Positions 12,020 to 32,326 of a stretch of 64,000 nt of DNA are shown piece after piece; position 1 is the stretch's first letter; each line of letters starts with the position of its first letter. A model generated the notes under the pieces. The model searched no databases. It was not told the origin of the DNA and was given only the letters and a program-made list of their open reading frames with translations. Source of the stretch: an uncultured Ignavibacteria bacterium (lineage in GTDB: Bacteria; Zixibacteria; MSB-5A5; JAABVY01); assembly GCA_964627935.1 (NCBI GenBank), contig CAZVLB010000004.1, forward strand, positions 153,842 to 217,841, given 5' to 3'. The position numbers were made by a program, and so were the translations under genes.

Positions 12020-14482
12020 TCAGTTTTTATTAATAACTGTATCTTTTATTTTCAAGGGCAGTTCCTTTATATCAATCGGCTTACTAATATAGTCCGAGAA
12101 ACCGGCCACCAGAAATCGCTCACGATCCTCGGGCATGGCCTGGCCGGTTACGGCAATGACCGGGATATCTGTCGTGTTCTTGTTGGCTTTGAGCCTGTCC
12201 AGTGCGTCAAGGCCGTTCATGTCAGGCAACTGTATATCCAGCAATATTATATCAGGGCCATATTTTTGAGCGAATTCTATTCCTTCCATGGCTGAGGTGG
12301 CTGTCATTATACTGAAATCATGCTTCTGCAATGCTGATCGGATAAGCCTGAGATTGAACTCCTCATCATCGATTACCAGGATATTTATCGAGGAACCGTT
12401 TTTATTTTCGACGGAGTCATTCTCCGTTTTTTCCTGTTTTGATGATATTATCTGGCCTACAGGGAGGGCGATGAAGAAGTTGCTGCCCTGGCCCGGCTCG
12501 CTTTCCACCCAGATCCGTCCGCCATGCATTTCCACCAGGTTGCGGCTCAGGCTGAGCCCCAGCCCTGTTCCCTGGAATTTGCGCGCGAGGGAATGGTCTA
12601 CCTGCTGGAATTCGCCAAAGATCAGTTCCTGGTCCTCCTTTTTTATCCCGATACCGGTATCACTGACACAGATAATATATTCCTGCCCCTGTTCTTCCAG
12701 CGACAACTGGACTGATCCCTGGGCAGGCGTGAATTTTATGGCATTTGATAAAAGATTGTAAAGAATCTGCTTCAGTTTTTTGGCATCGGCCATTACCCGG
12801 CAGTCTTGATTAGCATCACATCCCAGCCTGACCTCGGCGCTGCGGGCCATGCCCTGAACCGTCTTGATTGAGTCTCGAACCAACTGACCCAGATTTACCT
12901 CGGCAATTTCCAGCACAGATTTGCCGGCCTCAATCTTTGCCAGGTCGAGGATATCGTTGATCAGGTCCATCAGGTGATGACCGCTCTGGGCAATTATGCG
13001 GATGTATTCCAGATGTTCCTGGCTGATTGTGTTCCGGTTCTCCTGTTCCAGCAGATCGGCAAAGCCTATGATCGAATTCAATGGTGTGCGCAATTCATGG
13101 CTCATGTTTGCCAGGAAAGAGCTTTTAGCCCGGCTGGCCGATTCAGCCGCGTCCTTGGCCGCCTGCAACTGCTCCTCCATATTGCGACGCTCGGTGAAAT
13201 CCACGAAGTTTCCGAATGTGCCTGTGTATTTTCCCGTTTCGTCGAAGCGGGGCGAGATCGAGGCCAGCACCACCCGGCGGTTGTTTTTTGCAGTTATAAT
13301 GTCAACCTCATACTGCGAAGACCTGTTCTGACGGCGGATTTCTGTCTGCGCCAGGATGAAATCATGAAAGTTCTCAGGGATGAAATCCAAAATGCTGCGT
13401 CCGATTAATTCACAGTGATTTTCGACTTCCAGTATCTTGCCGAAAGCCGGATTGCACATTACAATCAGCTCATTTTCATCAACAATCCCAAGGCCATCAA
13501 CAACGCAATTAAACAGTTCCTGGTAACGGCTTTCCGATTGACGAAGGGCGCTGTCGAAATTACGGCGTTCCAGGGCGCTGACGAATATCTCGCCCGCGAT
13601 TTTAATCAGTGTGATGAAATCATCGGGCCAGGTACGCTCCACCTGTATCGAATCGAAGCCCAGAAATCCGCGTAATTTGCCGCCGTAAAGCATGGGAATG
13701 AGCAATCGTGATTTTATCCCACGGGCTGTCATGCTGTCTTTCTCAAGTTGCGCTTCCGGCGGCATGGCATCGGTTGAGGGGATATAGATGTTCTCAAAAT
13801 TCTTCAGGCGCGACATAAACCAGGGGAACAGCTCGGTTCCAAATTCAGCCACACTTATTTTCTGCGCATCGATTTCGCCGTCAACCCATTCATAAGTGTT
13901 TAGCATACGGTTCAGGTCATCATTAAAAAGAAACAGGTAACTGCGATCAACGCCGGTAAAACATCCAATCTGACGCAGGGCTTCGCGGATTTCCGCATCG
14001 GTATTTTCCGGCCTGAGATTTATAAAGCGTGAGGATATGGTCGTAATAAGCCGCTCAAAATTCTGTCTGTACTGAAGTTCACTTTCGGTGTCGATTTGTT
14101 CGGAAATATCGCGGGCAATTCCGAAAATAACATCCGTGCCATTCCAGCGGCCGCGCGACAGGCGGGTTTCCACCGGTATTGTATTGCCCCTGCTGGTCAT
14201 AAGCGGGATAAAGCAGGAGGCCACATCCTGATTCTTCAACCGGGACAGCATTTCCCGGGCCCTGCTTTGCATTTCCGGGGGATGTAAATCGAGGATCGAC
14301 ATGTTTTGAAGCTCATGCCGGGTATAGCCCAGTTTCCTGACAAGGGTTTGATTGAAATGCAAAATTTTGCCGTCAAGACCGACAATTGCCAGGAAATCAT
14401 CAAGTGAATCCAAAAGAGCGCTGAAATCCTCAGGACTTGCGTGATTTTTGCTCTCGGCCTTTTGCGAGCCGGTGTTGATCAT
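12020..14482 (-). CDS. PAS/GAF sensor hybrid histidine kinase with C-terminal receiver
   Basis: 820 aa. PAS and GAF regions, H-box 'MSHELRTPLNSIIGFADLL', HATPase 'GTGLGLSLSRNLVEMHGG', and C-terminal REC 'ILVIDDEEFNLR…IILLDIQLPDMNG'. Confidence 0.8.
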   Translation of the reverse strand: MINTGSQKAESKNHASPEDFSALLDSLDDFLAIVGLDGKILHFNQTLVRKLGYTRHELQNMSILDLHPPEMQSRAREMLSRLKNQDVASCFIPLMTSRGNTIPVETRLSRGRWNGTDVIFGIARDISEQIDTESELQYRQNFERLITTISSRFINLRPENTDAEIREALRQIGCFTGVDRSYLFLFNDDLNRMLNTYEWVDGEIDAQKISVAEFGTELFPWFMSRLKNFENIYIPSTDAMPPEAQLEKDSMTARGIKSRLLIPMLYGGKLRGFLGFDSIQVERTWPDDFITLIKIAGEIFVSALERRNFDSALRQSESRYQELFNCVVDGLGIVDENELIVMCNPAFGKILEVENHCELIGRSILDFIPENFHDFILAQTEIRRQNRSSQYEVDIITAKNNRRVVLASISPRFDETGKYTGTFGNFVDFTERRNMEEQLQAAKDAAESASRAKSSFLANMSHELRTPLNSIIGFADLLEQENRNTISQEHLEYIRIIAQSGHHLMDLINDILDLAKIEAGKSVLEIAEVNLGQLVRDSIKTVQGMARSAEVRLGCDANQDCRVMADAKKLKQILYNLLSNAIKFTPAQGSVQLSLEEQGQEYIICVSDTGIGIKKEDQELIFGEFQQVDHSLARKFQGTGLGLSLSRNLVEMHGGRIWVESEPGQGSNFFIALPVGQIISSKQEKTENDSVENKNGSSINILVIDDEEFNLRLIRSALQKHDFSIMTATSAMEGIEFAQKYGPDIILLDIQLPDMNGLDALDRLKANKNTTDIPVIAVTGQAMPEDRERFLVAGFSDYISKPIDIKELPLKIKDTVINKN

Positions 14483-15037: not shown

Positions 15038-18000
15038 ATGAGAAAACCATTGATACTGCTACTCGTTTTGGGCTTCACTTTTCTTCTCACCTCACTTGCA
15101 ACCGCCGCCGAGGATGACTGGTGGGCGGATTCATTGTCGACCAAGCGCGGTTCGGGCGAACCGACCCTGCAGGAGATTTTTGATGACCTGGGCTATGATA
15201 TCGATGCTGATGCCGATGAGCTGGGAATCGAAACATTCTGCGCCCTGCCCGGACAGAACCTGGCGACAATTATAATAGAGGTTGCCGGATCATCAACAAC
15301 GGCAAATTCCGGATGGTATGTTGCCGGGGATTCGAGCACATTATACCAGATCTTTTCCGGTTCCAATGTGCCCGGTGATTCTACCACATTTACTATAACC
15401 GCCGGAGATTCAATCGGCTTCTACATGGAACCGAATCTTTCCACATATCATATCTGGTTTACCGAGAATTTCATGAATTCAGATAATTTCGATCATGCCC
15501 GGGTCTATTCAACATCTGTTCCGCATGAGTACCTGGTCTGTTTCGAGGACCTGAACAATGGCGGCGATATGGATTACAACGACCTGATTGTGAAGATCAA
15601 ATTCGCCAACCAGGAACCTACTATTGAATTGAGCGGCCTGACCGATTATTTCCTGTGTGCACCGGAGCAGATCTGTATCGATATTCTTGCCGAGGATGCC
15701 AACTGTGAAGGGGATACATTGACGGTCGAGATGGTTCAGGGCCCCGGCACATTTACCAGTATTGTGGGAGTCGGACCAATCAACGCCAGCCATTGTTTTA
15801 CACCCGCGAGCATGGATGATAGCTATCAGTTTATTTTCAAGGTTACCGATGAAGTCGGGGCCGAAGCTTATGATACAGTTACTATTAATGTAGAGATAAA
15901 TGATCCGCCAGTAATAACCTGCCCTGCAGATATTGCACTGCAATGCTCAGAGTCTACCGATCCATCCAATACGGGATCAGCCAGCGCGACCGATGATCAT
16001 GATGCCAATCCGGCTATCAGCTATACTGATACGGAAACCGCCGGATCATGCCCGCAGGAAAAGACAATTACAAGACGATGGAAGGCGGTCGATAGTTGCG
16101 GCGATTCGGCTGTCTGTATTCAGACGATTGTGGTTGAAGATACCACAATACCGGCAATAACCTGTCCTGCAGATATCACAATTGACTGCAATGGTTCAAC
16201 CGATCCATCAAATACCGGATCAGCCACAGCGACAGACAACTGCGATACGGCACCGGATATTACCTATGCCGATGTCACCAATGGCAATGTTATCACCAGA
16301 ACATGGACAGCCACCGATGACTGTGGCAATTCATCCAGCTGTGATCAGTTGATCACGATTGAGGATACAACTCCTCCGACTATCACATGTCCCGATGATG
16401 TCTCAGTTCAATGTATTGCCGATCTTCCACCTGTTGATATCAACGCCGTGACAGTTTCAGATGACTGCGATGCAAATCCGGCTGTGACCCATATCAGCGA
16501 TGTCTCTGATGGTAACAGCTGCCCGGAGATTATTACCAGAACCTACAGGGCAACAGATGCATCAGGTAATTATGCCGAATGTTCACAGTTGATTACCATA
16601 GATGATACAGAAGTACCTGTAATAACCTGTCCCGCAGATATCACAATTGACTGCAATGGTTCAAGCGATCCATCGAATACCGGATCAGCTACAGCAACGG
16701 ATAACTGCGATACAGCTCCTGATGTTACCTATGCCGATGTCACCAACGGCAATGTTATCACCAGAACCTGGACAGCTACCGATGACTGCGGAAATTCAGT
16801 CGGCTGTGACCAGTTGATCACGATAGAGGATACAGCTGCACCGACTATTGCATGCCCGGATGATGTTTCAGTGCAATGTATTGCCGATCTTCCGCCGTTT
16901 GATATCAACGCCGTGACAGTTTCAGATGACTGCGATGCAAATCCGGCTGTGACTCATATCAGCGATCTTTCAGACGGTAACAGCTGTCCGGAGATTATAA
17001 CCAGAACCTACAGGGCAACCGATGCCTCCGGCAACTATGCTGAATGTACTCAGTTGATTACGATAGATGACACAGAAGCTCCCGTGATAACCTGCCCTGC
17101 AGATATCACAATCGACTGCAATGGTTCAAGCGATCCATCGAATACCGGATCAGCTACAGCAACGGATAACTGCGATACAGCTCCTGATGTTACCTATGCC
17201 GATGTCACCAACGGCAATGTTATCACCAGGACCTGGACAGCTACCGATGACTGCGGTAATTCAGCCAGCTGTGACCAGTTGATCACGATAGAGGATACAA
17301 CTGCACCGACTATTGCATGCCCGGATGATGTCTCAGTGCAGTGTATTGCCGATCTTCCACCGGTTGATATCAATGCTGTTACGGTCACAGATGACTGCGA
17401 TACAAATCCTGTGGTGACTCATATCAGCGATGTCTCTGATGGTAACAGCTGCCCGGAGATTATAACCAGAACCTACAGGGCAACAGATGCATCAGGTAAT
17501 TATGCCGAATGTTCACAGTTGATTACCATAGATGATACAGAAGTACCTGTAATAACCTGTCCCGCAGATATCACAATTGACTGCAATGGTTCAAGCGATC
17601 CATCGAATACCGGATCAGCTACAGCAACGGATAACTGCGATACAGCTCCTGATGTTACCTATGCCGATGTCACCAACGGCAATGTTATCACCAGGACCTG
17701 GACAGCTACCGATGACTGCGGAAATTCAGCCAGCTGTGACCAGTTGATTGAATTCAATCCCAATACTGCGCCGGTTTGCGATATCCCTGAAGATACAACA
17801 ATTACCCAGTGTACACCGACCGAGGTCTGCCTGCCGGTTTCGGCCACCGACGCCGAGAATAATCTTGTCGGTTGTGAATTGACTGATGGTCCCGGCCAGT
17901 TAGCTAACGGCAACTGGTGCTATACTCCACAGGGTGATGAAAGTGTCATTGTAACGATAACATGTACTGATGAATGTGATGAGTTCTGCGAGGAAACATT

Positions 18001-20110
18001 TACGGTTACCTTCGAGATGAACAGTTCGCCGTCTATTACAGTTGCGGCTGATATGGATGAGTTCGTCTGTAATGCGGCAGAAGAAATCTGTTTCGCCAAT
18101 TCTGCCAATGATCCAGATCTGCCCAGTGACAATCTTACATTCTCACTGACAAATGCCCCGGCCGGTTCATCCATAAATGCCCAGACAGGCCAGGTATGTT
18201 TCTCACCCGGATCATCGGGGACATTCAACTTCACAGTTCGAGTCACTGATGATTGCGGTTCATATGCCGAAGATCAGGTGACCGTAAATATCGAAGAGAA
18301 CAATCCGCCGACAATATCGTCGGCGCAGAATAATTATTCATATACCTACTGTCCCGGCACATCACCGGTCGAGCGCTGTTTCAACAGCTTTGCTATCGAT
18401 GATCCCGATCCGCAGCATGATGCCGGCGACCTGACATTGAGCAAGATCGAGGGCCCGGGCACATTCGATCCGGTAACCATGAAAACCTGCTTCACGCCGG
18501 ATGTCATGGATGCTACTTATACATTTGTATATGAACTGACCGATCCATGCGGAGCCTCAGCTTATGACACAATCACGGTTGAGACAATAGTGCTCGATGA
18601 CTGCGATTCAACCACCTGTCTGGAGATTTCTTTGGGTGATACGACCTGCGTTTACAATGGCGTATATACTCTTGTTCCGGTCGAAATCCAGAACCACACA
18701 GGGGGCGGTATCGGGGGATTCGAATTCCTGATCAGCTACGATGCATCGGCTTTTACCTTTATCGAGGCATTTCAGGCCGAAGCGATCGAGGATTGGGAAT
18801 ACTTCACATATCGCACGGGACCGTTTGGAAATTGCGGTTCCCAGTGTCCCGGCGGCATGGTTCTGCTGGTTGGTTTGGCCGATATTAATAACGGCGCGCC
18901 TCATCCGCCGGAACCGGCATTCGATCCCAACGGTACCCTGGCATGGATGAAGTTCTATGTCACTTCCGACAGAAACTACGGCGGCCAGATTTTTCCGCTT
19001 GAATTCATCTGGCTGGATTGTACCAATAATCTCGTCTCAAACAGGACCGGCGACACGGTCTTTGTGGATAAATTAATTTATGGCCCGCTGGGTTATGTTG
19101 ATTGGGATGAGTTCGATGATGTAACTTATCCGGATGCCGACAGGCCATTTGGCCTCGGCGCTCCCGATCTATGTGTCGTGGGGGATAAGGTCGAGCCGCG
19201 CAGATGTATAATCTTCTATGAAGGATACATCAGTATCTGTCATCCCGATTCTATCGATGCGCGCGGCGATTTGAATCTCAATAATGTGCCCAATGAGATC
19301 GGTGATGGTGTGCTTTACACCAATTTCTTCATCTATGGCCCATCAGTATTTATCGTCAACCTGCCCGGCCAGATAGCGGCTTCGGATGTCAACGCTGACG
19401 GAAGAACCTTGACAGTTGGCGACCTTGTATACCTGATCAGGGTACTCAATGGTGATGCGGCTCCGTATCCAAAACTCAGCCCCTTTGCCAACAGCCTTGA
19501 ACTGACGACCAGTGTCACGCATGATGGCTTAACGGTACAGGCATTCTCGGATATCGACCTGGGTGCGATACGTCTGTCCTTTGAGGTCGAGCATGGTGTT
19601 GATGTCAATGTCAGCCTGGCTGATGATATCGAGAATATGAGCCTTAAATCCGATATTGTTAATAATCGTCTGAATGTGATAATCTACAATTTCGACAAAG
19701 CAAGTATCCCTGCGGGCAGATCGGAATTGATTAGCATTATCACCGATGGCAATCTGGAACTGGTTCAAGCCGAGGCTTCGGATTACGATGGCGCTCAGCT
19801 TGAAGTCAATCTCAGCAGAAAGCATCTGCCGACCGAGTTTGCGCTTGAGCAGAACTATCCGAACCCATTCAACCCGGAAACTGAAATCAGCCTGGCATTG
19901 CCACAGGCCGGTGACTGGAGTCTGGCGATTTACAACATCAAGGGCCAGCTTGTGAAGGAATTCAGCGGCTATTCGGATGCCGGAATCGTGATTGTGCGCT
20001 GGGATTCAAAAGATCACGGCGGCAATCCGGTTGCCTCCGGTATCTATTTCTACAAGGCGGAATACAACGGCGTGGCTTCCGAGACACGCAAGATGGTGCT
20101 GATTAAATAG
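15038..20110 (+). CDS. secreted HYR-repeat adhesin-like protein with cohesin and dockerin modules and T9SS C-terminal sorting domain
   Basis: Signal peptide 'MRKPLILLLVLGFTFLLTSLATA'. There are about 10 HYR-like modules ('ITCPADITIDC…ATDNCD…TRTWTATDDCGNS'). A cohesin-like module follows ('GIGGFEFLISYDASAFTFIEAF…GTLAWMKFYV'), then a dockerin repeat pair ('GDLNLNNVPNEIGDG…', 'DVNADGRTLTVGDLVYLIRVLNG'). The C-terminal T9SS CTD is 'LEQNYPNPFNPETEISL…GIYFYKAEY…KMVLIK'. RBS GGAG sits 5 nt upstream of the ATG at 15038; an alternative ATG is at 15026. Confidence 0.8.
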   Translation: MRKPLILLLVLGFTFLLTSLATAAEDDWWADSLSTKRGSGEPTLQEIFDDLGYDIDADADELGIETFCALPGQNLATIIIEVAGSSTTANSGWYVAGDSSTLYQIFSGSNVPGDSTTFTITAGDSIGFYMEPNLSTYHIWFTENFMNSDNFDHARVYSTSVPHEYLVCFEDLNNGGDMDYNDLIVKIKFANQEPTIELSGLTDYFLCAPEQICIDILAEDANCEGDTLTVEMVQGPGTFTSIVGVGPINASHCFTPASMDDSYQFIFKVTDEVGAEAYDTVTINVEINDPPVITCPADIALQCSESTDPSNTGSASATDDHDANPAISYTDTETAGSCPQEKTITRRWKAVDSCGDSAVCIQTIVVEDTTIPAITCPADITIDCNGSTDPSNTGSATATDNCDTAPDITYADVTNGNVITRTWTATDDCGNSSSCDQLITIEDTTPPTITCPDDVSVQCIADLPPVDINAVTVSDDCDANPAVTHISDVSDGNSCPEIITRTYRATDASGNYAECSQLITIDDTEVPVITCPADITIDCNGSSDPSNTGSATATDNCDTAPDVTYADVTNGNVITRTWTATDDCGNSVGCDQLITIEDTAAPTIACPDDVSVQCIADLPPFDINAVTVSDDCDANPAVTHISDLSDGNSCPEIITRTYRATDASGNYAECTQLITIDDTEAPVITCPADITIDCNGSSDPSNTGSATATDNCDTAPDVTYADVTNGNVITRTWTATDDCGNSASCDQLITIEDTTAPTIACPDDVSVQCIADLPPVDINAVTVTDDCDTNPVVTHISDVSDGNSCPEIITRTYRATDASGNYAECSQLITIDDTEVPVITCPADITIDCNGSSDPSNTGSATATDNCDTAPDVTYADVTNGNVITRTWTATDDCGNSASCDQLIEFNPNTAPVCDIPEDTTITQCTPTEVCLPVSATDAENNLVGCELTDGPGQLANGNWCYTPQGDESVIVTITCTDECDEFCEETFTVTFEMNSSPSITVAADMDEFVCNAAEEICFANSANDPDLPSDNLTFSLTNAPAGSSINAQTGQVCFSPGSSGTFNFTVRVTDDCGSYAEDQVTVNIEENNPPTISSAQNNYSYTYCPGTSPVERCFNSFAIDDPDPQHDAGDLTLSKIEGPGTFDPVTMKTCFTPDVMDATYTFVYELTDPCGASAYDTITVETIVLDDCDSTTCLEISLGDTTCVYNGVYTLVPVEIQNHTGGGIGGFEFLISYDASAFTFIEAFQAEAIEDWEYFTYRTGPFGNCGSQCPGGMVLLVGLADINNGAPHPPEPAFDPNGTLAWMKFYVTSDRNYGGQIFPLEFIWLDCTNNLVSNRTGDTVFVDKLIYGPLGYVDWDEFDDVTYPDADRPFGLGAPDLCVVGDKVEPRRCIIFYEGYISICHPDSIDARGDLNLNNVPNEIGDGVLYTNFFIYGPSVFIVNLPGQIAASDVNADGRTLTVGDLVYLIRVLNGDAAPYPKLSPFANSLELTTSVTHDGLTVQAFSDIDLGAIRLSFEVEHGVDVNVSLADDIENMSLKSDIVNNRLNVIIYNFDKASIPAGRSELISIITDGNLELVQAEASDYDGAQLEVNLSRKHLPTEFALEQNYPNPFNPETEISLALPQAGDWSLAIYNIKGQLVKEFSGYSDAGIVIVRWDSKDHGGNPVASGIYFYKAEYNGVASETRKMVLIK
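16141..17745 (+). repeat. 468-bp in-frame tandem repeat, about 3.4 near-identical copies, each encoding a pair of HYR modules
   Basis: Unit starts at about 16141, 16609, 17077 and 17545. Long stretches are identical at nucleotide level (for example 'acctgtcccgcagatatcacaattgactgcaatggttcaagcgatccatcgaataccggatcagctacagcaacggataactgcgatacagctcctgatgttacctatgccgatgtcaccaacggcaatgttatcacc'). Confidence 0.85.
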
Positions 20111-20136
20111 ACAACCTTTCGATCCTTTGAATGAAG

Positions 20137-20178
20137 CAGGCCCCGTCTGAAATAAAAGGCGGGGCCTGTAATTTTTTA
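20137..20178 (+). terminator. rho-independent terminator after HYR adhesin gene
   Basis: An 11-bp GC-rich stem ('caggccccgtc' … 'ggcggggcctg', one G·U) with a 10-nt loop, followed by 'taatttttta'. Confidence 0.7.
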
Positions 20179-20221
20179 TCATATGATTTGAATCCGAAAG
20201 CAGTTTTGTTATACTGAATTT

Positions 20222-20656
20222 ATGCGCAGGAATTCCAAACCATTCAGCAGCAAAACCGGCAGGAGTTCACGTCCTCATGGCAAGCGAACAAAACCTGATT
20301 TCCATTCGGGCGCAAAAATTGAAACCAGGTCCGGCATCAGTGTCCGATCACAATATGAGAAGATCTGCGTCGATTATCTTTATAAAAACGGTGTTGAGTT
20401 CTTGTATGAGCCATTGATGCTTCTGGGCGGACGGCAGTTTCGTCCCGATTTCTTTCTGCCAGAATATAATCTCTTTCTGGAAATCTGCGGCTTTAACCAT
20501 ATGCCCTACTACCGCAGCCGGGTGGAGCAAAAGAGAGCGACTTACGAAAAGCACAAACTCAATGTGGTGTTTATCAAGTGCAGTACCAAAGGCATGCTGA
20601 TAAAAGAGATCGAAAAAGCGATAGCAGCCAAAAGAGTAGATTGCAAACCGAATTAA
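20222..20656 (+). CDS. DUF559/Vsr-like (PD-(D/E)xK-fold) small basic protein
   Basis: 144 aa with a highly basic N-terminal region. The core 'YEP…RPDFFLPEYNLFLEICGFNHM…' matches the pattern of DUF559/very-short-patch-repair-like endonuclease domains (…DF…IE-DG…H). Cys replaces the usual Asp. Confidence 0.35.
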   Translation: MRRNSKPFSSKTGRSSRPHGKRTKPDFHSGAKIETRSGISVRSQYEKICVDYLYKNGVEFLYEPLMLLGGRQFRPDFFLPEYNLFLEICGFNHMPYYRSRVEQKRATYEKHKLNVVFIKCSTKGMLIKEIEKAIAAKRVDCKPN

Positions 20657-20671
20657 GCCAGCCCTAAAAAC

Positions 20672-21556
20672 CTACCAGATTTTTTCCAGCATGCTCCTTA
20701 GGATTTCATTGAATACCTCGGGCTTTTCCAGTTGAGGAAAATGGCCTGTCTCTGAAATAAATCCTATTTCAAAATGCCCGGCGATTTCTTTGTTGGCCTC
20801 AACGTTGGTCGGGAATCTCTCGGCATTGATGGCGTAAATGGGGATATCGAAATCAGCCAGCGCCTTCTTATAGTCATAAAGAACAGTGTTTCTGAGCGCC
20901 TCCACCGCGATTTCCGGCGGAGCGGAGGCCATATCCTCGGCAATCGGTTCAACTACCGCCGAATCCGATGCGGCAGGGAAGAGGGCCAGCACATAGTCGA
21001 ATGTATATTCCTTGAAATTCCTTTCGAAGTTGTCAACAAAACTGTCGACCTGAGCGTCAGTAAACTCAAGGCTGAAATCCTGATACATATCCACGCCGAT
21101 AATTGCACGCACCTTATCCGGGATCATTTTCGCAGTCTCTATAATCACAACCGCCCCCATGGAATGACCCACCAGCACAACATTATCAAGCTCGAGATAA
21201 TTTACCACGGCAACAACATCCCGGCCAAATGCTTCAACCGTCCAGGCCTCGCGATTCGTGCCGGATTGGCCATGCCCCGCCAGATCGATTGTGACAACTT
21301 TGTAATCTCTGGAAAACGGTCCCACCTGGTTGCGCCAGTAGCTCTCATCGCAGCTCCAGCAATGCAAAAAGACGAGTGTCTTTTCGGCTGAGCCGTAAAC
21401 TTGGTAGTGAATCTCAACGCTGTCGACGGAGAGTACGCTACCCTCCTCCGGGATTGCGACCTTATCTTCTCCCTGGCAGGCCAGGACAATGCAAACTAAA
21501 ACAAACAGCCCGCACAATGCCATATGTCGCATTACAATACAACTCCATTTCATCAA
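20672..21556 (-). CDS. alpha/beta-fold hydrolase, secreted/lipoprotein
   Basis: 294 aa. Signal peptide with 'LACQG'. Nucleophile elbow 'VLVGHSMGAVV', and 'HCWSCDESYW' upstream. Typical AB-hydrolase-1 layout. Confidence 0.75.
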   Translation of the reverse strand: MMKWSCIVMRHMALCGLFVLVCIVLACQGEDKVAIPEEGSVLSVDSVEIHYQVYGSAEKTLVFLHCWSCDESYWRNQVGPFSRDYKVVTIDLAGHGQSGTNREAWTVEAFGRDVVAVVNYLELDNVVLVGHSMGAVVIIETAKMIPDKVRAIIGVDMYQDFSLEFTDAQVDSFVDNFERNFKEYTFDYVLALFPAASDSAVVEPIAEDMASAPPEIAVEALRNTVLYDYKKALADFDIPIYAINAERFPTNVEANKEIAGHFEIGFISETGHFPQLEKPEVFNEILRSMLEKIW

Positions 21557-21639
21557 ATCATTCCTCCGCTGATCGGTTCAATGTTGAATATGGCGATTAT
21601 GTTTCTATTCGGCAATATCAAATTGCTAATAGTTGCGCT

Positions 21640-24552
21640 CTAACAATCCGAATTGCCGTCACCATCCGTGTCGCAGGGAGGATGCCCGCCCTGGAAAACA
21701 TATGTTATCATATAGACTGCATCAGTGAGATTGATCTTGCTGTCGCAGTTAACATCACCAGATTCAAATGGCACTGGCTCACTGCCATTCAGGAACAGGA
21801 AGTTGACGATGTATACCGCGTCAGTGATATTTACAGTCTGGTCTGCATTGGCATCACCGCATTCACCGCCGACACGGAAGGCGAAGATGTCCTCAGTTGT
21901 ATTGGGTTTTGTGGTATTAAACCTGACCACTGTGCCAAATTCCGGATGATCCAGCATGCCGCTGTAATCATTGAATAAAAGTCGTCCCAGATGAAAATCG
22001 TCATCCCATACATATCCCAGATCGCCCGCATTTGGGGGCAATGGTTCGGCGGGGTATTCTAACTCGCCGACATAAATCCTGTCGCCCCAGCTCCATCCGC
22101 CGGAACCGTCATCATCGATGATCCAGAATATGTCACGTTGGTCGGGGATCGTGTCATCCGCGGTGAAATGCCATATCTCGAACGGCGCCCTGTTTGGGAA
22201 CTTGAAATCGGTGGTCCAGTCGTAGTATTCACTGCCCTGGGCCGTGAAACGGAATTCCCAGGCTTCGTTTTCCATGTTTCCGCGCCAGTTGAACCTTTCA
22301 ATCGCTGCCTGATCCGAGCCTGTGAAATCCGAAGAAACATAATAATCACCGCTGGAGTTCATTGACCAGAAGACATTGTCAGGTTCAATCGGCCCTGCTG
22401 AAGTCTCAATCTCGAGTACCGAGGCTATCCCCGGATTTGAACCGATTACACGCGGCATAATGCCATCGATCACAGGGTAATCATAATCCCCTGACTGATT
22501 TTCCTGATTTGTCAGCAGAAACATCCCGTCACGCTCCAAATTCCATGTCTCATCGGGGTTTAATGTTACCGTATAGTAGCCCGTGTTTATAACATTAAAA
22601 TCCACATATTCGACAATGACCATTCCATCAGAATTTCCCTGAATATGATCCGCCGTATCGGACAGGGGAAATTCAGGATCGGCTTCGGGAACTACCGTAA
22701 ATGAGCTTTTGGAACTTTCCAGGTTGGCCATCTTGAATCCCAGGAAATTCAAACCTGCGAAAACCGAATCCTCGGAATGAACATCCTCAATATTGATAAG
22801 ATAAGGCGAGACCGCGAAGTAATAAGGGATACCGTTCATGAGCGGTCCGCCGGCGAGATGATCTTCGTTTATGACCAGGTGATTTTCGATACCGGAACCA
22901 TTGCCGGATTGCACGATCTTTAGTTCCAGTCCTCCAGATTGCTGATCGACGACCCAGTTATATATTAGATTGAAATCCCATGGGCGCGGTATGGTATCAC
23001 AGACTGTAGTCCCATTGTCGTCATAGCAATTGACCGTATTTTCGCCGGCCACAGACTCAAATGCCATCTGGGATTCCATTGCAGTCATATCGAATGTCAT
23101 TATTTTTGTCCAGGGCCCGTTTTCCGTTTCGCCCTGATAAATATTGTAGCCCTCGAAAACATAGAACTCACCATACTGATCCATGAAGTCCTGATAATGA
23201 GTCTCCACACCGCCGCCCCAGATCAGGTCAACTGCCTGATCCATGCCGCGGCCGTAGGCGTAGTAATTGTCATTCGGGAGTGGAACGCTGAAATCGCTCA
23301 AATATACTTCCTGAGCATGCTGGGCGACTTGCCTCAGATCTACTATGCTCTGCAGGTTGTTATTGCCCTGCCCGACAACTATCGCCATAATTACTTCCTG
23401 CGAATCCCCGGGCATCATATTGAATGGTCCGGCTGAGAGCATATAACGGCGGTCGGCAGAGGCATCGTCAATCCATCCCGTACCGGTAACAGGATCGCCG
23501 GCATGATAGAATGTGGTCGTATCGCCATTTGGATCGATGACCGGATTGCCAAAAATCTCCAGGCCCTGCATATAGTTATAGCTCTCCTGGGGAGAGTGGG
23601 GATCCGTTCCGTTTATATACTTATTAAATGATGACATGGGGAGATTTTTCCTGCCCGAATACCATTGCCCCATAAATTTGCCCGAATCATCCGGAAGGCC
23701 ATCAACAAGCGGTCCCTGCAAAAAAGTAAAACCGACAGCCGGCGCCTTCTCACCATAGATGTTATCCGTACCATCATTGTAGCAATAGCCCAGTGAAAGA
23801 CTTGTGTCGCATCCGATCAGGTCATCCCCGGAATGACCAATATCCGGGTCGGCCCACAACGATACATACATGTCCTCGAGCTGATTGCCGCCCTTGTTGA
23901 TAATCAGGAATTTCATGAAGATCGTGCGTCCAAGCGCGCCGACACGATTGAATGCTCCGCTGGTATGCTGAATTTCGATTCCCAGGGGTTCTGTGCTTCC
24001 GGCATCATTGTTATGGCTCAACGGATCGGCGTCATTATAGGCTGACCAGAGGGTTTGATCGCCGAAATGCAATGGATTGCCGTATTGATCTACCGGTGCG
24101 CCCTGATCGGTGGGCCAGTTTAAATAGTCTGGATTGGCATTATCATCGCCGCGATTGATTTTGTAGACCTTGAAATCTGGGCTGTCCGGCTGAAAAGTTC
24201 CGCCCGTCATCGGCCCGGGCACATATTCGCTGTTGTATTCCGCGACAGCTATACGAAGCTGGCCGTTGACCTTTGCACCAAGCCATAATCCGGCAGAATA
24301 GATAACGGTTTTTTCTGTGCCGCGTGGAAAATACAGCCCGGCAACATTACCCAGCACCATATCATTGTCATAGCAGAATGTACCGTCATTGTAGACAAAT
24401 CCCAGCAATGAATTGATATCTATATAAGTATCATGGTCCAGTATCTGAGATAAGTTCGCGTCAGATGTTTTCGATCGATTATCATCTGCTGCGATCAACA
24501 CGGATGCGACTAATAGTAAAATTATTGCGCTTAATAAGATAGATGCTTTCAT
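21640..24552 (-). CDS. large secreted protein with C-terminal dockerin repeat pair
   Basis: 970 aa. Signal peptide 'MKASILLSAIILLLVASVLIAA'. The C-terminus carries two dockerin-type Ca-binding repeats ('GDANADQTVNITDAVYIVNFLF…', 'GDVNCDSKINLTDAVYMITYVFQG'). The roughly 850-aa body is unrecognised. Confidence 0.65.
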   Translation of the reverse strand: MKASILLSAIILLLVASVLIAADDNRSKTSDANLSQILDHDTYIDINSLLGFVYNDGTFCYDNDMVLGNVAGLYFPRGTEKTVIYSAGLWLGAKVNGQLRIAVAEYNSEYVPGPMTGGTFQPDSPDFKVYKINRGDDNANPDYLNWPTDQGAPVDQYGNPLHFGDQTLWSAYNDADPLSHNNDAGSTEPLGIEIQHTSGAFNRVGALGRTIFMKFLIINKGGNQLEDMYVSLWADPDIGHSGDDLIGCDTSLSLGYCYNDGTDNIYGEKAPAVGFTFLQGPLVDGLPDDSGKFMGQWYSGRKNLPMSSFNKYINGTDPHSPQESYNYMQGLEIFGNPVIDPNGDTTTFYHAGDPVTGTGWIDDASADRRYMLSAGPFNMMPGDSQEVIMAIVVGQGNNNLQSIVDLRQVAQHAQEVYLSDFSVPLPNDNYYAYGRGMDQAVDLIWGGGVETHYQDFMDQYGEFYVFEGYNIYQGETENGPWTKIMTFDMTAMESQMAFESVAGENTVNCYDDNGTTVCDTIPRPWDFNLIYNWVVDQQSGGLELKIVQSGNGSGIENHLVINEDHLAGGPLMNGIPYYFAVSPYLINIEDVHSEDSVFAGLNFLGFKMANLESSKSSFTVVPEADPEFPLSDTADHIQGNSDGMVIVEYVDFNVINTGYYTVTLNPDETWNLERDGMFLLTNQENQSGDYDYPVIDGIMPRVIGSNPGIASVLEIETSAGPIEPDNVFWSMNSSGDYYVSSDFTGSDQAAIERFNWRGNMENEAWEFRFTAQGSEYYDWTTDFKFPNRAPFEIWHFTADDTIPDQRDIFWIIDDDGSGGWSWGDRIYVGELEYPAEPLPPNAGDLGYVWDDDFHLGRLLFNDYSGMLDHPEFGTVVRFNTTKPNTTEDIFAFRVGGECGDANADQTVNITDAVYIVNFLFLNGSEPVPFESGDVNCDSKINLTDAVYMITYVFQGGHPPCDTDGDGNSDC

Positions 24553-24704: not shown

Positions 24705-25691
24705 CTATTTGCTGAGTATGCTCCTGTGAATCCAGCCTTTTTTTGACGATTTATTCCGGCTTTCAAAGCTGATCAGGTTATCCGTTTCCCGTACAACAGT
24801 TTGCATGTTCACGGCAACCTCCTGTACCTCTGCTGTCGCATTTTCAGCCTCATCCAGCCATGTCTGTACATCCGAGATGCTAACAATAGGGCTCTGAGAT
24901 TCACCCTTAACAGCAACCGCCTCAATTGCCGCGGATTTGAGCAGTTTGTCAAATTGCATTTCAAACAGATCATGACTGCGGTATATATCCGCGCAGTTGA
25001 TTTCGCCGTTAATCACTACAACCATACCGACAGCATTATTATCCTCATCCATTTGCTCTTTTATTGCCTGTATATATGGTTGTTGCAGGTTTTGATGTTC
25101 CGCGCTGTCCATCATAAGAACCAGGCTGCCTGATCTTCCGCCCCTCATCATTATTTCGCCCGATTGCATTCTGGCGATATTGTCCCAGACCTTTTGCTGA
25201 TCGGCTTCCAGATTGACCGCAAGTTTTATATCCTTGCCGACAACCATGTTTTCCGATGACTCGAATTTCATTGCATCCGCGCCAGATCGCCCGCTCCAGC
25301 GTCCATGCTCGACGCAGAACGATTTCAGGGGCACCTCGCCGGCATTTGGCTCGAGCACGAGGTCATGACGCAATAACCTGTCCTGACGGCCGCCCTTGAC
25401 AAGATCGCCGGATTGAATGTAAATCCGATAATGTGAGTTGTTGCTGACAGTCAACTCGCCTACATTGCCGGTTTCATTGACCGTAACATAGCCCTTTTCC
25501 ATTGCATCTTTAAGTGAAATCAAATTCTCAGAATCCTCGGAAGAATTATCATGAACCAGGAAGATCGACAGATTTTCATGAACGTACGGGCCGGACAGTT
25601 TATGATCACTATCGTTTTGCTGGCTGACAGCCATTGCGGCGAGGGCCAGGAGCAAAAAAGCCGCTACTGTAATGATGAGTCTGGAAGGCAT
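24705..25691 (-). CDS. secreted hypothetical protein
   Basis: 328-aa ORF with an N-terminal signal peptide ('MPSRLIITVAAFLLLALAAMAVSQ'). No recognisable domain. Confidence 0.5.
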   Translation of the reverse strand: MPSRLIITVAAFLLLALAAMAVSQQNDSDHKLSGPYVHENLSIFLVHDNSSEDSENLISLKDAMEKGYVTVNETGNVGELTVSNNSHYRIYIQSGDLVKGGRQDRLLRHDLVLEPNAGEVPLKSFCVEHGRWSGRSGADAMKFESSENMVVGKDIKLAVNLEADQQKVWDNIARMQSGEIMMRGGRSGSLVLMMDSAEHQNLQQPYIQAIKEQMDEDNNAVGMVVVINGEINCADIYRSHDLFEMQFDKLLKSAAIEAVAVKGESQSPIVSISDVQTWLDEAENATAEVQEVAVNMQTVVRETDNLISFESRNKSSKKGWIHRSILSK

Positions 25692-28285: not shown

Positions 28286-29524
28286 TTAATTTGCAGCGGA
28301 GACAGTTGCCACTCTGTCCAGCTCAGTTCTTACCGCTGTGGCTATGGTATGCTTGTTGAATGGCTTGCGGATAAATGTCCCGGCGCCGAGTTTCTGAGCC
28401 TGAAGTACGTGCTCAGTCTCCGCAAAGCCGGACACAATAATTGCCTTCTGTCCCGGTGTAATCTCGAGTACCCGCCTGTAGGTCTGCGCGCCGTTCATAC
28501 CGGGAGGCATGATCATATCCAGGATCAGAAGATCATATTGCTTTTTGCGAATATAACGAAGGGCGCTTTCCCCATTTTCAGCGGTTTCAACCTCGTACCC
28601 GAGAGTTTTCAGAATCTGCGAGGATACATCACGTTGCACCTCATCATCATCGATTATCAGGATACGTTCATGACCGCCCTTTACATCTCTTGAATGCGGA
28701 TGGTCCTTTGACATTCGTGTGACCGGAAAATAGATGAAGAATGATGTGCCCTCACCGACTTTTGTCGCAAGATCGATGTAACCATTATGATCTTTCACGA
28801 CCGCATCGACCACACTCATGCCGAGCCCTGATCCCCGGCGTTTATCGGCGATTTTCGAGGTGAAGAAGGGATCGAATATTTTATTTACGATCTCATCGGG
28901 AATTCCGCAACCGGTATCGCTGATTGTCAGCTTGACATATTCGCCCATCGGTACGCGGCTGTATTGCACCGATTCGCTATCTACGTAGCAGTTTTCTGTC
29001 TTGATGGTAATCGTGCCGATATCCTGCATGGCATCACGGGCATTGGCCACCAGGTTGCTGATAACTCGATGTATCTGCGCCCTGCCGCCCATGATATCCA
29101 TCAGATCGTCGAACAGGTCCAAATCAAATGCCAGAGTTCCGGAATTGAGATTGATTTCTGAAGTAACATGATATACTATCGTGTTAAGATTCAAAATTTC
29201 CTGATTGTAGTGTCCGCGCCTGCCCATTGTCAGAAGATCCTGGTTGATATCGGCGATCTTCCTGGCGGCCTGCTCGATCTGGTCAACATAGGCTAACACG
29301 GTATGATTTTTGGGAAGATCCTCACGGATTAAATCCGGGTAGGCCATTAAGGGCGCCAGCAGGTTATTGAAATCATGAGCCACCTGTCCAGCAATTGTGC
29401 CGGCTGTCTCCAGCCTTTCGGCACGAGACTCGAGAGCGCGCAGACGTTTTGTCTCGCTAATATCCGAACAGAATGCGAGATACAGGTCACCCTCGAGTTG
29501 CACGGCTTCCAGGTCCACCTCCAC
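28286..29524 (-). CDS. HisKA-HATPase-REC C-terminal portion of a hybrid sensor kinase (same frame as upstream multi-PAS ORF; no independent ATG)
   Basis: 412 aa. 'HDFNNLLAPLMAYPDL' H-box, HATPase 'GSGLGMSVVDAVVKDHNGYIDL', REC 'ILIIDDDEVQRD…DLLILDMIMPPGMNG'. It is paralogous to the C-terminus of the 5605..8997 kinase. The ORF-track 'M' is GTG, 6 codons after an in-frame TAA. Confidence 0.7.
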   Translation of the reverse strand: MEVDLEAVQLEGDLYLAFCSDISETKRLRALESRAERLETAGTIAGQVAHDFNNLLAPLMAYPDLIREDLPKNHTVLAYVDQIEQAARKIADINQDLLTMGRRGHYNQEILNLNTIVYHVTSEINLNSGTLAFDLDLFDDLMDIMGGRAQIHRVISNLVANARDAMQDIGTITIKTENCYVDSESVQYSRVPMGEYVKLTISDTGCGIPDEIVNKIFDPFFTSKIADKRRGSGLGMSVVDAVVKDHNGYIDLATKVGEGTSFFIYFPVTRMSKDHPHSRDVKGGHERILIIDDDEVQRDVSSQILKTLGYEVETAENGESALRYIRKKQYDLLILDMIMPPGMNGAQTYRRVLEITPGQKAIIVSGFAETEHVLQAQKLGAGTFIRKPFNKHTIATAVRTELDRVATVSAAN

Positions 29525-29542: not shown

Positions 29543-32326
29543 TTAGAGGCGCATTTCACGGCGCAGGTAGCCTTGCTTTTTCAACTCTGCATATGCAACC
29601 ATGGCCGATCTGCCATGCTCAAGTACCGGAAGATCATTTATCGATTTGCCGATAATCTCATCACGGTCATAGCCGAGCATTTTGCAGGCGGAGCCATTGA
29701 CTTCGACATAACGGCCCTCGCTATCGGTCACCATAATGGCGATGGGAGAATTATTTATATATGTGCGATACTTGTTTTCACTTCTGCGAAGCTCATCCAG
29801 CAATCTGTCACGTTCAGTCAATGACCGGGCCAGCTTGATATTGCCATGGCTGAGAGATGAGATTAGCTCGCTCAGCTTGGAATAGAATTCCATCACAGCT
29901 TCAATTGTATCATTGTTCCAGCGCGGCATCTTTTCCAGGGCTTTAATATAATCGTCTTCATCGAATTTGTATTTGCGGGCCTGCTTCCTGAAAAGATCAT
30001 ATTCGATCTGTTCATCTTCGAGCAGGAACTGGCCCAGGAAAAGATTGCCCAGATGTTTCCCGCCCACCATAATCGGCATGGCAATATCGCGTAAACCATT
30101 CTTGCAACGATAGGATCTGAATGAGCCGGGTTCAACACCCTTTGAAAGAATCATATCGCTTTCGATGCAGTTTTTGTGGGTTTCCGGATGAGCCCTGTGG
30201 AATTTTGTGCAGATCTCCTGCCAGTCGGTTCCTATGAGCACATTGCCATCAAGATCGATTATTCCCACCCCTATTTTAGTCAGTTTATGGAAGCTTTCCA
30301 TCAATGACTGAACAGTATCTATATCAATAACATCCGCCAACTCCAGTTCACCGATATCGCCGTCGGGCTCCATAATCGCCGCGAGTTTTCTCCTGACCCG
30401 CTGCTCGCTTTCACGCAAGGCCCGCTCGGCTTCGATTCGGTCGGTGATATCAACATGAGTACCCATGGTTCTGACCGGATTGCCCCCTTCATTACATATG
30501 ACCGAAGCCTGCGACATGATCCAGCGGTAAGAACCGTCCTTGTGACGGAACCTGAATTCAACCTGGTAATTGGGAGTCTTACTGTTAATATAGTTGTTAA
30601 TTTTATTCAGAACATCAGGCAGATCGTCGGGATGAACGCGGCTTTCCCATTCATCATAGTTATCACCGATCTCATGATCCTCATAACCGATCTGGCTCTT
30701 CCATTCCTCAGAATAGTGAATCTTGTTGGTTTTCAGATCCCAGTCCCAGAGGCCCACATTACCCGCTTTGACTGCCGCTTCCTGGCGCAGAACAGCCTCG
30801 TGGATTTTTTCTTCCGCCTGCCGTTCATCAGTAATATCGCGATTCAGGCCGATCATCCTGACCGTATTGCCGGCATTATCACGAACCACCAGGCCATCGG
30901 CCTTGAGCAGTTTCACCGTGCCGTCAGGATGAAGGACCCTGAATTCGGTATCAAATTTGTCTTCCCCGCGCAGTGCGGCCTCACATAATGCAATAGCCTG
31001 TTCAGCATCATCCGGGTGAAGCCCGTTTTTCCAGACCTCCACATTGCCTGTAAACCGTTCCGGAGTGACACCGTAAAGTTCGAACATACGTTCATCCCAG
31101 ATCATCTTATTGTTGATGATATCCCAGTCCCAGACACCAAGTTTGGCCGATTCCGTGGCAAGTTGAAGTCGACGGATAGTATCCTTTAATTCCAGCTCCA
31201 TTTTCTTACGTGTGGTGGTTACCTCCGTGTAGGTAATAATTCCGCCGATTGAACCATCGGATTTATACCAGGGGCGGCATTCCCAGCGATTATATGTTAT
31301 TGAACCGTCCTGACGCACAAAGAAATCATCATCATTGCGCTCAATAGCTCCCTCAAGACAGTGTTGATGAATGTCTCTCCATTTTTGAGGCATCTCCGGG
31401 AAGACCTCATAATGATGCTTGCCGATGATATCCTTGTCCCTTACGCTGTAATCCTCAAGGTAACGATCACTTACGGCTATATAGTGAAGGTTATTATCGT
31501 AAACTGCAACGGCATTGGGATCATGCTTGAGTATGTATCGCGGATTTTCTTCGCTTTCGCGAAGAGCCCTGATAGAATTCTCCCGCTCGGTAGTATCATA
31601 GATTATTGAATATAGAAACTTCTTGCCGTTGGAAACAAATGGGCTGGAATGCACTTCGACATCGCGAATTTCCCCTGAGGCAAGACGATGGCAGAATTTA
31701 AACATGCCCTTTTTTTTATTTGCGGCCTTCTGCATTTCATCATGAACCGCAGATTCCTCCAGTGTATTGATTTCCTGAATTCGCTTGCTGATCAATTCAT
31801 CCCGGGGGTAGCCATAAAACTCTACCGCCGCCGAATTTGCATCCACTATCTCTCCGCTGGAGGGATCTATCAGGAGCTTGACCGTGCGGTTTTTCTCGAA
31901 CATCGCCCGATAACGATCTTCACTTTCCCTTAATGAATCCTCGGCCTTTTTATAATCTGTAAAATCGGTCAGGACCCCGTTCCAAACAATGGAACCATCC
32001 TCCTGACGATGCGGATTCGAGTTTCCCTTGATCCAGATAATCCCGTTATCCGGAGCAATAACTCTGAATTCAAGATTCCAGGTTGTGAGGTTTGAAGCAG
32101 ATTCACTGAAAGCCCGCTTGAAATATTCTAGGTCGTCCGGATGTATAAAATCAAAAATCCTATTCGCGTCCCGCATCAGATATTCTGCCTTGATACCCGT
32201 CGGTTCATCCAGCGCATTGCTCATATATGGAATGGAAATTGAACCATCAGCATGCTGCACGAATTGAAACACGCATCCGGGAACGGATTGTATGATGTCA
32301 AGCAGTTGATTCTTCGTTACCGACAC
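29543..32326 (-). CDS. multi-PAS/PAC sensor N-terminal portion (terminated by in-frame TAA at 29543-29545)
   Basis: 927 aa with at least six PAS/PAC repeats ('WDWDIINNKMIWDERMF…', 'WDWDLKTNKIHYSEEW…', 'FRHKDGSYRWI…'). No output domain of its own. It ends …EMRL* in the middle of a PAS fold that continues in the downstream ORF (RKDGSPVEVDL…). Confidence 0.7.
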   Translation of the reverse strand: MSVTKNQLLDIIQSVPGCVFQFVQHADGSISIPYMSNALDEPTGIKAEYLMRDANRIFDFIHPDDLEYFKRAFSESASNLTTWNLEFRVIAPDNGIIWIKGNSNPHRQEDGSIVWNGVLTDFTDYKKAEDSLRESEDRYRAMFEKNRTVKLLIDPSSGEIVDANSAAVEFYGYPRDELISKRIQEINTLEESAVHDEMQKAANKKKGMFKFCHRLASGEIRDVEVHSSPFVSNGKKFLYSIIYDTTERENSIRALRESEENPRYILKHDPNAVAVYDNNLHYIAVSDRYLEDYSVRDKDIIGKHHYEVFPEMPQKWRDIHQHCLEGAIERNDDDFFVRQDGSITYNRWECRPWYKSDGSIGGIITYTEVTTTRKKMELELKDTIRRLQLATESAKLGVWDWDIINNKMIWDERMFELYGVTPERFTGNVEVWKNGLHPDDAEQAIALCEAALRGEDKFDTEFRVLHPDGTVKLLKADGLVVRDNAGNTVRMIGLNRDITDERQAEEKIHEAVLRQEAAVKAGNVGLWDWDLKTNKIHYSEEWKSQIGYEDHEIGDNYDEWESRVHPDDLPDVLNKINNYINSKTPNYQVEFRFRHKDGSYRWIMSQASVICNEGGNPVRTMGTHVDITDRIEAERALRESEQRVRRKLAAIMEPDGDIGELELADVIDIDTVQSLMESFHKLTKIGVGIIDLDGNVLIGTDWQEICTKFHRAHPETHKNCIESDMILSKGVEPGSFRSYRCKNGLRDIAMPIMVGGKHLGNLFLGQFLLEDEQIEYDLFRKQARKYKFDEDDYIKALEKMPRWNNDTIEAVMEFYSKLSELISSLSHGNIKLARSLTERDRLLDELRRSENKYRTYINNSPIAIMVTDSEGRYVEVNGSACKMLGYDRDEIIGKSINDLPVLEHGRSAMVAYAELKKQGYLRREMRL

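Follow-up and report, generated by a model that had tools for sequence, protein, structure and literature searches.

Cohesin and dockerin modules joined to type IX secretion in surface proteins of Zixibacteria

Two convergent genes in a 64-kb stretch of DNA from an uncultured bacterium (contig CAZVLB010000004.1; this whole stretch is hereafter termed the window) encode large secreted proteins that carry cohesin and dockerin modules. One of them, termed P1, is a type IX secretion system (T9SS) substrate and contains both kinds of module, and the other, termed P2, is an all-beta protein that ends in a dockerin. The nearest named homologues of both proteins belong to candidate division Zixibacteria, and the source genome is probably a member of this division. 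The analysis inclines us, with some reserve, to the view that P1 and P2 are part of a phylum-wide, non-cellulolytic cohesin-dockerin surface assembly that is coupled to type IX secretion and found in Zixibacteria and some of its neighbours. This view draws on the folds and homologies of the modules, the conservation of a C-terminal cassette among relatives of P1, the existence of relatives with several cohesins, the swapping of a sorting domain for a dockerin tag and the diversity of the proteins that bear this tag. That P1 in particular binds P2 is doubtful.

A preliminary description of this DNA had placed the two open reading frames (ORFs) in convergent orientation 1.5 kb apart, and the ORF listing returned exactly the coordinates and lengths claimed, with 1.5 kb between the stop codons. 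Both proteins begin with Sec-type signal peptides. In P1 the signal peptide is followed by a DUF4114 domain, a long series of HYR/immunoglobulin (Ig)-like repeats and, lastly, a cohesin (Coh), an internal dockerin (docA), a module that folds as a beta-sandwich (X) and, at the very end, a T9SS type A C-terminal sorting domain (CTD); we refer to the arrangement Coh-docA-X-CTD as the cassette. Pfam searches found HYR_4C in five stretches (64.3 bits), the 465-bp tandem repeat of the gene encoding paired HYR_4C units, together with Big_9/PKD-like Ig domains. All four modules of the cassette are matched by local hidden Markov models (HMMs; coh, docA, xmod and ctd, all E 1e-31 to 1e-74). The sorting domain that had been assigned to P1 was borne out: residues 1611-1691 score 35.5 bits against TIGR04183 (cut-off 23), and the C-terminus forms a beta-sandwich with a predicted local distance difference test score (pLDDT) above 90 in an AlphaFold2 (AF2) model spanning residues 1196-1694 (alignment A1 of 88 homologues; overall pLDDT 91.9, predicted template-modelling score (pTM) 0.66). 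P1 is a giant HYR/Ig-repeat adhesin whose last ~500 residues form a conserved stalk cassette.

The cohesin of P1 escapes the standard family profile. The preliminary description had named the lack of a significant cohesin match as grounds for refuting this module. The PF00963 match obtained was 21.1 bits (E 3.9e-4) against a gathering threshold (GA) of 24.1, and it covers only 32 residues (1217-1248; profile positions 18-49 of 139); strictly read, the cohesin claim fails this check. A single-sequence phmmer search of the Coh-docA region against the PDB gave a marginal match to 3ul4_A (E 0.1). The predicted structure, a second check that had been proposed, does contain the cohesin jelly-roll: the modelled module (pLDDT about 90) superposes on the type I cohesins 3ul4_A (TM 0.82, E 2.5e-8), 1aoh_A (TM 0.81), 4uyq_A (TM 0.80) and 5nrm_A (TM 0.76) in Foldseek searches, with E values of 1e-7 to 1e-8. 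This jelly-roll carries insertions of ~65 aa, including a conserved WEYFTYR...GNCGxxCP loop. Several relatives of the P1 cohesin exceed the gathering threshold of PF00963, among them P0365 (82 bits; phmmer E 7e-76 with the P1 cohesin as query), P0361 (61 bits; E 1e-98) and P0102 (47.5 bits), as well as P0103, P0363 and P0366. The identity of the module as a cohesin, as originally proposed, is clear in the predicted structure and from these homologues; according to the local HMM, it is the sole cohesin in the window.

The second module of the cassette, docA, abuts the cohesin with no linker in between, and the junction is confidently modelled by AF2. The preliminary description had read a dockerin repeat pair here, an assignment upheld by the family profile, by profile-profile alignment and by a dockerin-like fold. 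The window copy itself has no PF00404 match even at E<=10, and 28 of 36 members of the docA family match this profile at E<=1 (best 7e-5). When the docA family profile (alignment A3) was searched against 177,635 PDB sequences, the top match was the dockerin 3ul4_B (E 0.0019), with 4fl4_A and 4uyq_B next; the top four include two dockerins besides 3ul4_B. Alignment with hhalign to dockerins of the P2 type gave a probability of 94.8% and an E value of 4.9e-8, and on this profile comparison docA and the dockerin of P2 (docB) are homologous. In the AF2 model docA runs loop-helix-short helix-loop-helix, with helices at 230-246, 251-257 and 269-280 in the numbering of the modelled segment. When docA is aligned with docB by hhalign, its Ca-type loops have 13 residues each compared to the canonical 12, and the acidic residue of each loop falls at position 13 because of the one extra residue. 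Of the four modules docA is the most conserved, with a mean column conservation of 0.75, compared to 0.61 for the CTD, 0.54 for the cohesin and 0.40 for X. The X module belongs to no Pfam family and is conserved along with the rest of the cassette, as judged by the local HMMs.

The second, distinct dockerin pair that had been noted at the C-terminus of P2 was recovered directly by Pfam: residues 899-952 match PF00404 at 31.2 bits (GA 22.9), the only family match in the protein. The two loops of docB, GDANADQTVNITD and GDVNCDSKINLTD, fit the canonical 12-residue pattern DxNxDxxxNxxD, and its AF2 helices lie at residues 909-921 and 942-954. An alignment of 23 docB relatives (A4) shows four conserved cysteines (C4, C42, C66 and C76) and, frequently, a PCDxDGDGxPDC tail; we use the name docB for this four-cysteine dockerin type. 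In agreement with the preliminary description, no CTD was found on P2 by Pfam, by NCBIfam (including TIGR04183) or by the local CTD HMM. In the AF2 model, the body of P2 is built of several domains, all of them beta, and leads into the three-helix dockerin. The body has no match in Pfam or NCBIfam and no recognisable catalytic domain, and Foldseek searches against the PDB returned partial, weak matches only (E about 6e-6, TM about 0.2), in which the N-terminal ~420 residues align with the non-catalytic beta-supersandwich N-domains of enzymes of the glycoside hydrolase (GH) families GH116, GH94 and GH15-like; there is no catalytic barrel. A binding or structural role for P2 seems more likely than an enzymatic one. 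The P2 family comprises more than 1596 homologues, and those that are named belong to Zixibacteria.

The cassette is widespread among relatives of P1. Residues 1196-1609, used as a query, matched 294 proteins. Of the 120 best, almost every one terminates in a T9SS CTD, those that are named come mostly from Zixibacteria, and local module HMMs recovered Coh-docA-X-CTD in 110. With the P1 cohesin alone, an exhaustive phmmer search of 1.84 billion cluster representatives yielded 1026 matches at E<=1e-3, again mostly from Zixibacteria; tightening the limit to E<=1e-10 left 743. In 90 of the best 147 matches a single cassette stands ~500 residues from the C-terminus, in proteins of up to 3626 aa. 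Cassettes follow hundreds of different N-terminal regions and close many unrelated T9SS substrates. In the best 80 loci that were fetched, full cassettes are found in eight species-representative genomes: Zixibacteria, metagenome-assembled genomes (MAGs) labelled Ignavibacteria, and one Calditrichaeota.

About 45 of the best 147 matches carry between two and five cohesins, in layouts such as (Coh-docA-X)x2-3-CTD, Coh-Coh-docA-X-CTD and Coh-Coh-docA-X-docB. The protein P0365 has four cohesins followed by docA, X and docB, and P0361 (2189 aa) has five cohesins. Throughout these relatives docA always stands directly after a cohesin, as it does for 271 of 309 P1-type cohesins; the remaining 38, all in multi-cohesin proteins, have no docA and are candidate open sockets and the more obvious receptors for docB. 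Two further architectures were seen in the fetched loci. One protein of a Zixibacteria MAG (JAUUYJ010000067.1; L005:6864-9482, + strand) combines He_PIG/Big_9, a cohesin, a docB-type dockerin and a T9SS CTD; its cohesin passes PF00963 (25.3 bits) but escapes the P1-type cohesin HMM, so more than one cohesin lineage is coupled to a CTD in Zixibacteria. In a Gemmatimonadota sequence (CP070758.1, 7271..19793; L013), every gene of a tandem set of four codes for a docB-like dockerin together with a T9SS CTD, and none for a cohesin. Architectures that combine a dockerin and a CTD reach well beyond Zixibacteria.

The strongest argument for the function of docB comes from what it replaces. In the P2 family, the ~880-aa body is followed by one of two alternative tails that start at the same alignment column: docB, in P2 and in 25 of the 120 listed homologues, or a CTD-type tail of ~105 aa with the motif 'VPNPYYN...FTEVEQLNTY/F', in 89 of the 120. 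The latter is related to the T9SS type A CTD and is matched by the local CTD HMM (examples are P0130 and P0163), and P2 relatives with a duplicated N-domain have a canonical CTD (P0214, 39 bits). Likewise, Coh-Coh-docA-X proteins close with either a CTD or docB (P0102 and P0103 were read directly, and there are at least five more). As two unrelated families exchange a sorting or anchoring domain for docB, we consider docB to be a probable surface-attachment device.

Proteins bearing docB are diverse. In the fetched Zixibacteria loci, from which this list was read, docB is found on two subtilases (Peptidase_S8), a glucose/sorbosone dehydrogenase (GSDH), a metallophosphoesterase, a BNR-repeat protein, a Peptidase_M28 protein and small proteins of ~200 aa; a homologue search with the docB profile returned short fragments only (<145 aa). 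One of the fetched loci, L084, also encodes a DUF7948/SBBP/TSP_3 protein with a Pfam Dockerin_1 match, encoded by a gene that is cut short where the locus ends.

These observations suggest a model for how the assembly may work. By analogy with the established Bacteroidota pathway, P1 would be exported by the T9SS and would give up its CTD as it becomes covalently bound to lipopolysaccharide of the outer membrane, so that X, docA and the cohesin would come to lie beside the cell surface. The dockerin docB would be another kind of tag for attachment to the surface, plugging into P1-family cohesins; the receptors could be CTD-anchored proteins such as P1, provided that its socket is unoccupied, or else scaffoldins and adaptors with several cohesins. 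The proteins tethered to the cell by this means would comprise P2-like proteins, peptidases, phosphatases and adaptor scaffoldins. Any actual binding, and the specificity of docB for cohesins, we infer from the architectures described above. The general idea of the preliminary description, a T9SS-sorted protein with a cohesin alongside dockerin proteins that have no CTD, accords well with the multi-cohesin relatives, the swapping of the tag and the enzyme cargo. Its term 'cellulosome-like' holds for architecture and fails for cellulolytic content, the window having no glycoside hydrolase, carbohydrate-binding module (CBM) or tandem cohesins. No GH or CBM was found in P1, P2 or the other window ORFs scanned, and as nothing here is cellulolytic the term can refer to architecture only. 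A true cellulosome was also considered and rejected: P1 has one cohesin, and neither a dockerin-borne glycoside hydrolase nor a CBM was found.

Several observations weigh against the assembly as we picture it or against the pairing of P1 with P2. The specific pairing proposed in the preliminary description was not upheld by gene order: P2-docB orthologues were located at six independent loci (L083-L088), and none of these has a cohesin gene in the surrounding sequence of up to 10 kb, so the adjacency seen in the window is absent there. An enrichment of dockerin genes near cassette genes was tried as evidence of pairing and discarded, since a dockerin gene lies near four of eight cassette loci compared to three of six other Zixibacteria loci; because dockerin genes are common in Zixibacteria loci generally, the proximity of P1 and P2 is uninformative. 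The single cohesin of P1 stands directly before docA, and Coh-docA is conserved and repeated as a block in relatives, so this cohesin may be occupied in cis and offer no free socket. The only export signal of P2 is of the Sec type, and in a diderm a protein with no CTD would still have to get past the outer membrane. Proteins with a dockerin and a CTD and no cohesin are common in other phyla (examples are L013, L038, L053 and L057), which means that a cohesin partner is not a necessity for every dockerin-like module. Finally, the TIGR04183 scores of the main, CTD-type tail in P2-family proteins stay under the cut-off (19.1 and 16.4 bits, compared to 23). This tail has an extra conserved C-terminal extension with an aromatic last residue and may be a distinct sorting-domain subtype.

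How docA relates to its neighbouring cohesin bears on the most serious competing explanation, which we regard as possible rather than probable: docA would bind the cohesin next to it, forming a rigid, Ca-stabilised base of the stalk, and P1 would recruit nothing. The docB of P2 would then bind docA-less cohesins encoded elsewhere, and the local adjacency would be coincidental. Such locking in cis would be in keeping with the virtual absence of a linker at the confidently modelled junction, with the regular succession of cohesin and docA and the repetition of the Coh-docA-X block two or three times, with the top conservation of docA in the cassette (compared especially to the cohesin), with the pTM obtained for the four-domain chain and with the lack of conservation of the P1-P2 adjacency. 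In a sequence-level comparison of docA-linked with docA-free cohesins, a C74/C78 loop, N118, K192 and P195 are conserved only when docA follows, which suits this explanation; at that level these few positions did not resolve into a coherent surface. On the other hand, cohesins with and without docA do not form separate clades and are intermixed (free cohesins have a docA-linked nearest neighbour in 21 cases and a free one in 17), and the very short linker may keep docA off the canonical 8-3-6-5 face of the cohesin, leaving that face free.

Two further explanations appear less probable. If docA of one cassette protein instead bound the cohesin of another, head-to-tail chains or a surface lattice would result, with docB forming a separate layer. 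The occurrence of cohesin and dockerin on one polypeptide, as is also said of proteins of Archaeoglobus fulgidus, would suit this arrangement, as would the presence of cassettes on hundreds of different N-terminal regions and the high conservation of docA over so many different carriers, which is expected for a common partner. Yet the 13-residue loops and the missing linker argue for a structural role of docA, and we judge such chains improbable. Least credible of all is that no partnership exists, the dockerin-like modules being Ca-binding stabilisers or spacers and the cohesin-like domain a generic beta-sandwich spacer, so that the resemblance to cellulosomes would reflect ancestry only. The cohesin-less dockerin and CTD proteins of several phyla could be read in this way, as could the scores of the window's cohesin and docA copies, which are below Pfam thresholds. 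However, multi-cohesin proteins exist, docB repeatedly replaces a sorting or anchoring domain and it is appended to many unrelated enzymes, and together these three observations make a docking function hard to avoid.

If docB does attach proteins to cohesins at the cell surface, as the favoured reading holds, it might also act as a hitch-hiker signal for type IX secretion, a proposal that we consider unlikely. The T9SS translocon is wide and handles folded cargo. A Sec-exported protein with no CTD, such as P2, would fold and form its disulfides in the periplasm and dock on the cohesin of a CTD carrier such as P1; the pair would then be co-exported via the T9SS, and the same cohesin contact would leave P2 tethered to the surface. 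Such a route would account both for the way in which docB and a T9SS-type tail stand in for each other at one position, in two families that are unrelated, and for the location of the cohesin right beside the CTD. A literature search on type IX secretion and piggyback transport found no title or abstract opening suggesting such a mechanism, and, if true, this would be the first piggy-back route described for the T9SS.

The features of the locus are collected in the table below. The gap between P1 and P2 contains a putative 144-aa ORF and an alpha/beta hydrolase gene; the latter is possibly co-transcribed with P2, and the ARPP-1 gene, P2 and the hydrolase gene may form one operon. Public assemblies hold a protein 100% identical to P2, on two contigs (L001 and L002) of the same organism, in which the order of P2 and the hydrolase gene is the same; the arrangement of all three genes did not recur where P2 orthologues are encoded in other genomes. 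Both contigs end inside the P1 repeats, probably because of the 465-bp tandem repeat. In addition to P1, the window encodes three CTD proteins, two of them confirmed by Pfam, which makes four in 64 kb and speaks for the favoured reading; local HMMs found neither a cohesin nor a dockerin in these three. Hybrid histidine kinases rich in PAS domains and response-regulator fusions are unusually numerous in the window, and one of them has a PocR sensory domain. The gene of a sigma-54 activator lies at 46940..48559 and that of a SpoIIE phosphatase at 59396..61003.

Table. Coordinates of P1, P2, their modules and other features of the window.
Feature	Position	Strand	Evidence or remarks
P1, T9SS substrate, 1694 aa	15026..20110	+	ORF; Pfam and NCBIfam matches; local module HMMs
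DUF4114 domain of P1 (residues 125-193)	15398..15604	+	PF13448, 33.6 bits vs GA 27
HYR_4C-type tandem array in P1	16149..17748	+	465-bp unit, 3.4 copies, 91% identical (Tandem Repeats Finder)
Cohesin of P1 (residues 1196-1405)	18611..19240	+	AF2, Foldseek; PF00963 below threshold
docA, non-canonical dockerin of P1 (residues 1406-1485)	19241..19480	+	Family profile matches, hhalign, AF2 helices
X, ~110-aa beta-sandwich of P1 (residues 1490-1598)	19493..19819	+	AF2 strands 295-403 of segment, pLDDT >90
T9SS type A CTD of P1 (residues 1611-1694)	19856..20107	+	TIGR04183, PF13860, PF18962
144-aa ORF, very basic N-terminus, putative	20222..20656	+	Just downstream of P1; no Pfam family
Alpha/beta hydrolase gene	20672..21556	-	PF12697 and PF00561; 84 bp downstream of P2
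P2, secreted all-beta protein, C-terminal dockerin, 970 aa	21640..24552	-	ORF; AF2 pLDDT 89.2
docB of P2 (residues 897-970)	21643..21864	-	PF00404; two canonical 12-residue loops; PCDTDGDGNSDC tail
P2 body (residues 41-890), multi-domain beta	21883..24432	-	AF2; N-terminal ~400 aa form a beta-supersandwich
ARPP-1 family gene	24705..25691	-	Upstream of P2, 153-bp gap
T9SS type A CTD protein, 369 aa	32674..33783	+	CTD HMM
T9SS type A CTD protein, FG-GAP x5, 460 aa	40949..42331	+	CTD HMM
T9SS type A CTD protein, Big_2 giant, 2863 aa	48797..57388	+	CTD HMM
PAS-rich hybrid histidine kinase / response-regulator fusion	5605..8997	+	
PAS-rich hybrid histidine kinase / response-regulator fusion	12020..14482	-	
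PAS-rich hybrid histidine kinase / response-regulator fusion	28286..29524	-	
PAS-rich hybrid histidine kinase / response-regulator fusion	29543..32326	-	
PAS-rich hybrid histidine kinase / response-regulator fusion	62096..63757	+	

Compared to known systems, the modules are closest to the clostridial type I pairs (C. thermocellum CipA and OlpA-Doc918; PDB 1aoh, 1ohz and 3ul4). They share the cohesin jelly-roll (TM 0.8) and the duplicated EF-hand-like dockerin, with canonical 12-residue loops in docB; both P1 modules match chains of 3ul4 best in sequence and profile searches, and tandem cohesins and adaptor-like Coh...Doc proteins, as known from clostridial systems, also occur among relatives of P1. 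Unlike those systems, the host is a diderm and the anchor is a T9SS CTD in place of an SLH domain or a sortase signal, P1 has a single cohesin with ~65-aa insertions fused to a dockerin with 13-residue loops, and docB has four conserved cysteines. The cargo likewise differs from that of the clostridial cellulosome: glycoside hydrolases and CBMs are missing, and the proteins seen are peptidases, one phosphatase, one dehydrogenase and functionally uncharacterised beta-proteins. Foldseek also listed the CohI9-X-DocII end of CipA (PDB 3kcp and 4fl4), whose cohesin, X beta-module and dockerin likewise lie together close to the cell; there, however, the order is Coh-X-Doc rather than Coh-Doc-X and the final anchor is a dockerin rather than a CTD, and superposition beyond the cohesin is poor (root-mean-square deviation 12-13 A, TM 0.4). 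The Archaeoglobus fulgidus proteins AF2375 and AF2376 are reportedly non-cellulosomal cohesin and dockerin proteins that likewise combine the two modules on the same polypeptide in a non-cellulolytic organism. They are archaeal and differ from P1 in module order and dockerin type, and they are not known to have a T9SS CTD or to form a conserved C-terminal cassette.

The closest precedent comes from 'Ca. Stygibacter' of the Cloacimonadota, a related uncultured phylum with CTD-type sorting, for which a cellulosome-like complex was described in silico (Williams et al., 2021; PMC8542988). Its scaffoldin of 3755 aa has tandem cohesins, CBM2/CBM3 and a T9SS-type CTD for surface attachment, and the enzymes that make up its cargo have a signal peptide and a dockerin at the C-terminus, S8 and C25 peptidases and GHs being among them (PMC8542988). 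A cohesin protein with a T9SS-type CTD and dockerin-tagged signal-peptide proteins that include peptidases are thus common to both systems, and a T9SS-CTD scaffoldin is already known by inference for Cloacimonadota. Unlike in 'Ca. Stygibacter', the Coh-docA-X-CTD cassette described here is found on many unrelated substrates, with a second, internal dockerin type and a swap between CTD and docB. Apparently new are this cassette, the internal dockerin with 13-residue loops, the four-cysteine docB, the exchange of CTD for docB and the occurrence of such a system in Zixibacteria; a literature search combining Zixibacteria with cohesin, dockerin or T9SS found no paper.

To our knowledge, cohesin-dockerin assembly is understood almost solely in Gram-positive, cellulolytic Firmicutes. 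Here, an uncultured diderm phylum appears to join cohesin and dockerin modules to type IX secretion in three ways: in a cassette, in multi-cohesin scaffoldins and adaptors, and through a swappable dockerin tag, which is interchangeable with a secretion or anchoring domain and is carried by proteases and phosphatases rather than cellulases. If the binding that these architectures suggest is real, it would constitute a second, independent attachment route to the T9SS-decorated outer membrane and would explain a class of 'hypothetical' surface proteins of Zixibacteria. It would also turn the crossing of the outer membrane by dockerin proteins with no CTD into a testable question, and would add to the orthogonal cohesin-dockerin pairs with which proteins can be displayed on the surface of Gram-negative hosts, a disulfide-stabilised dockerin among them.

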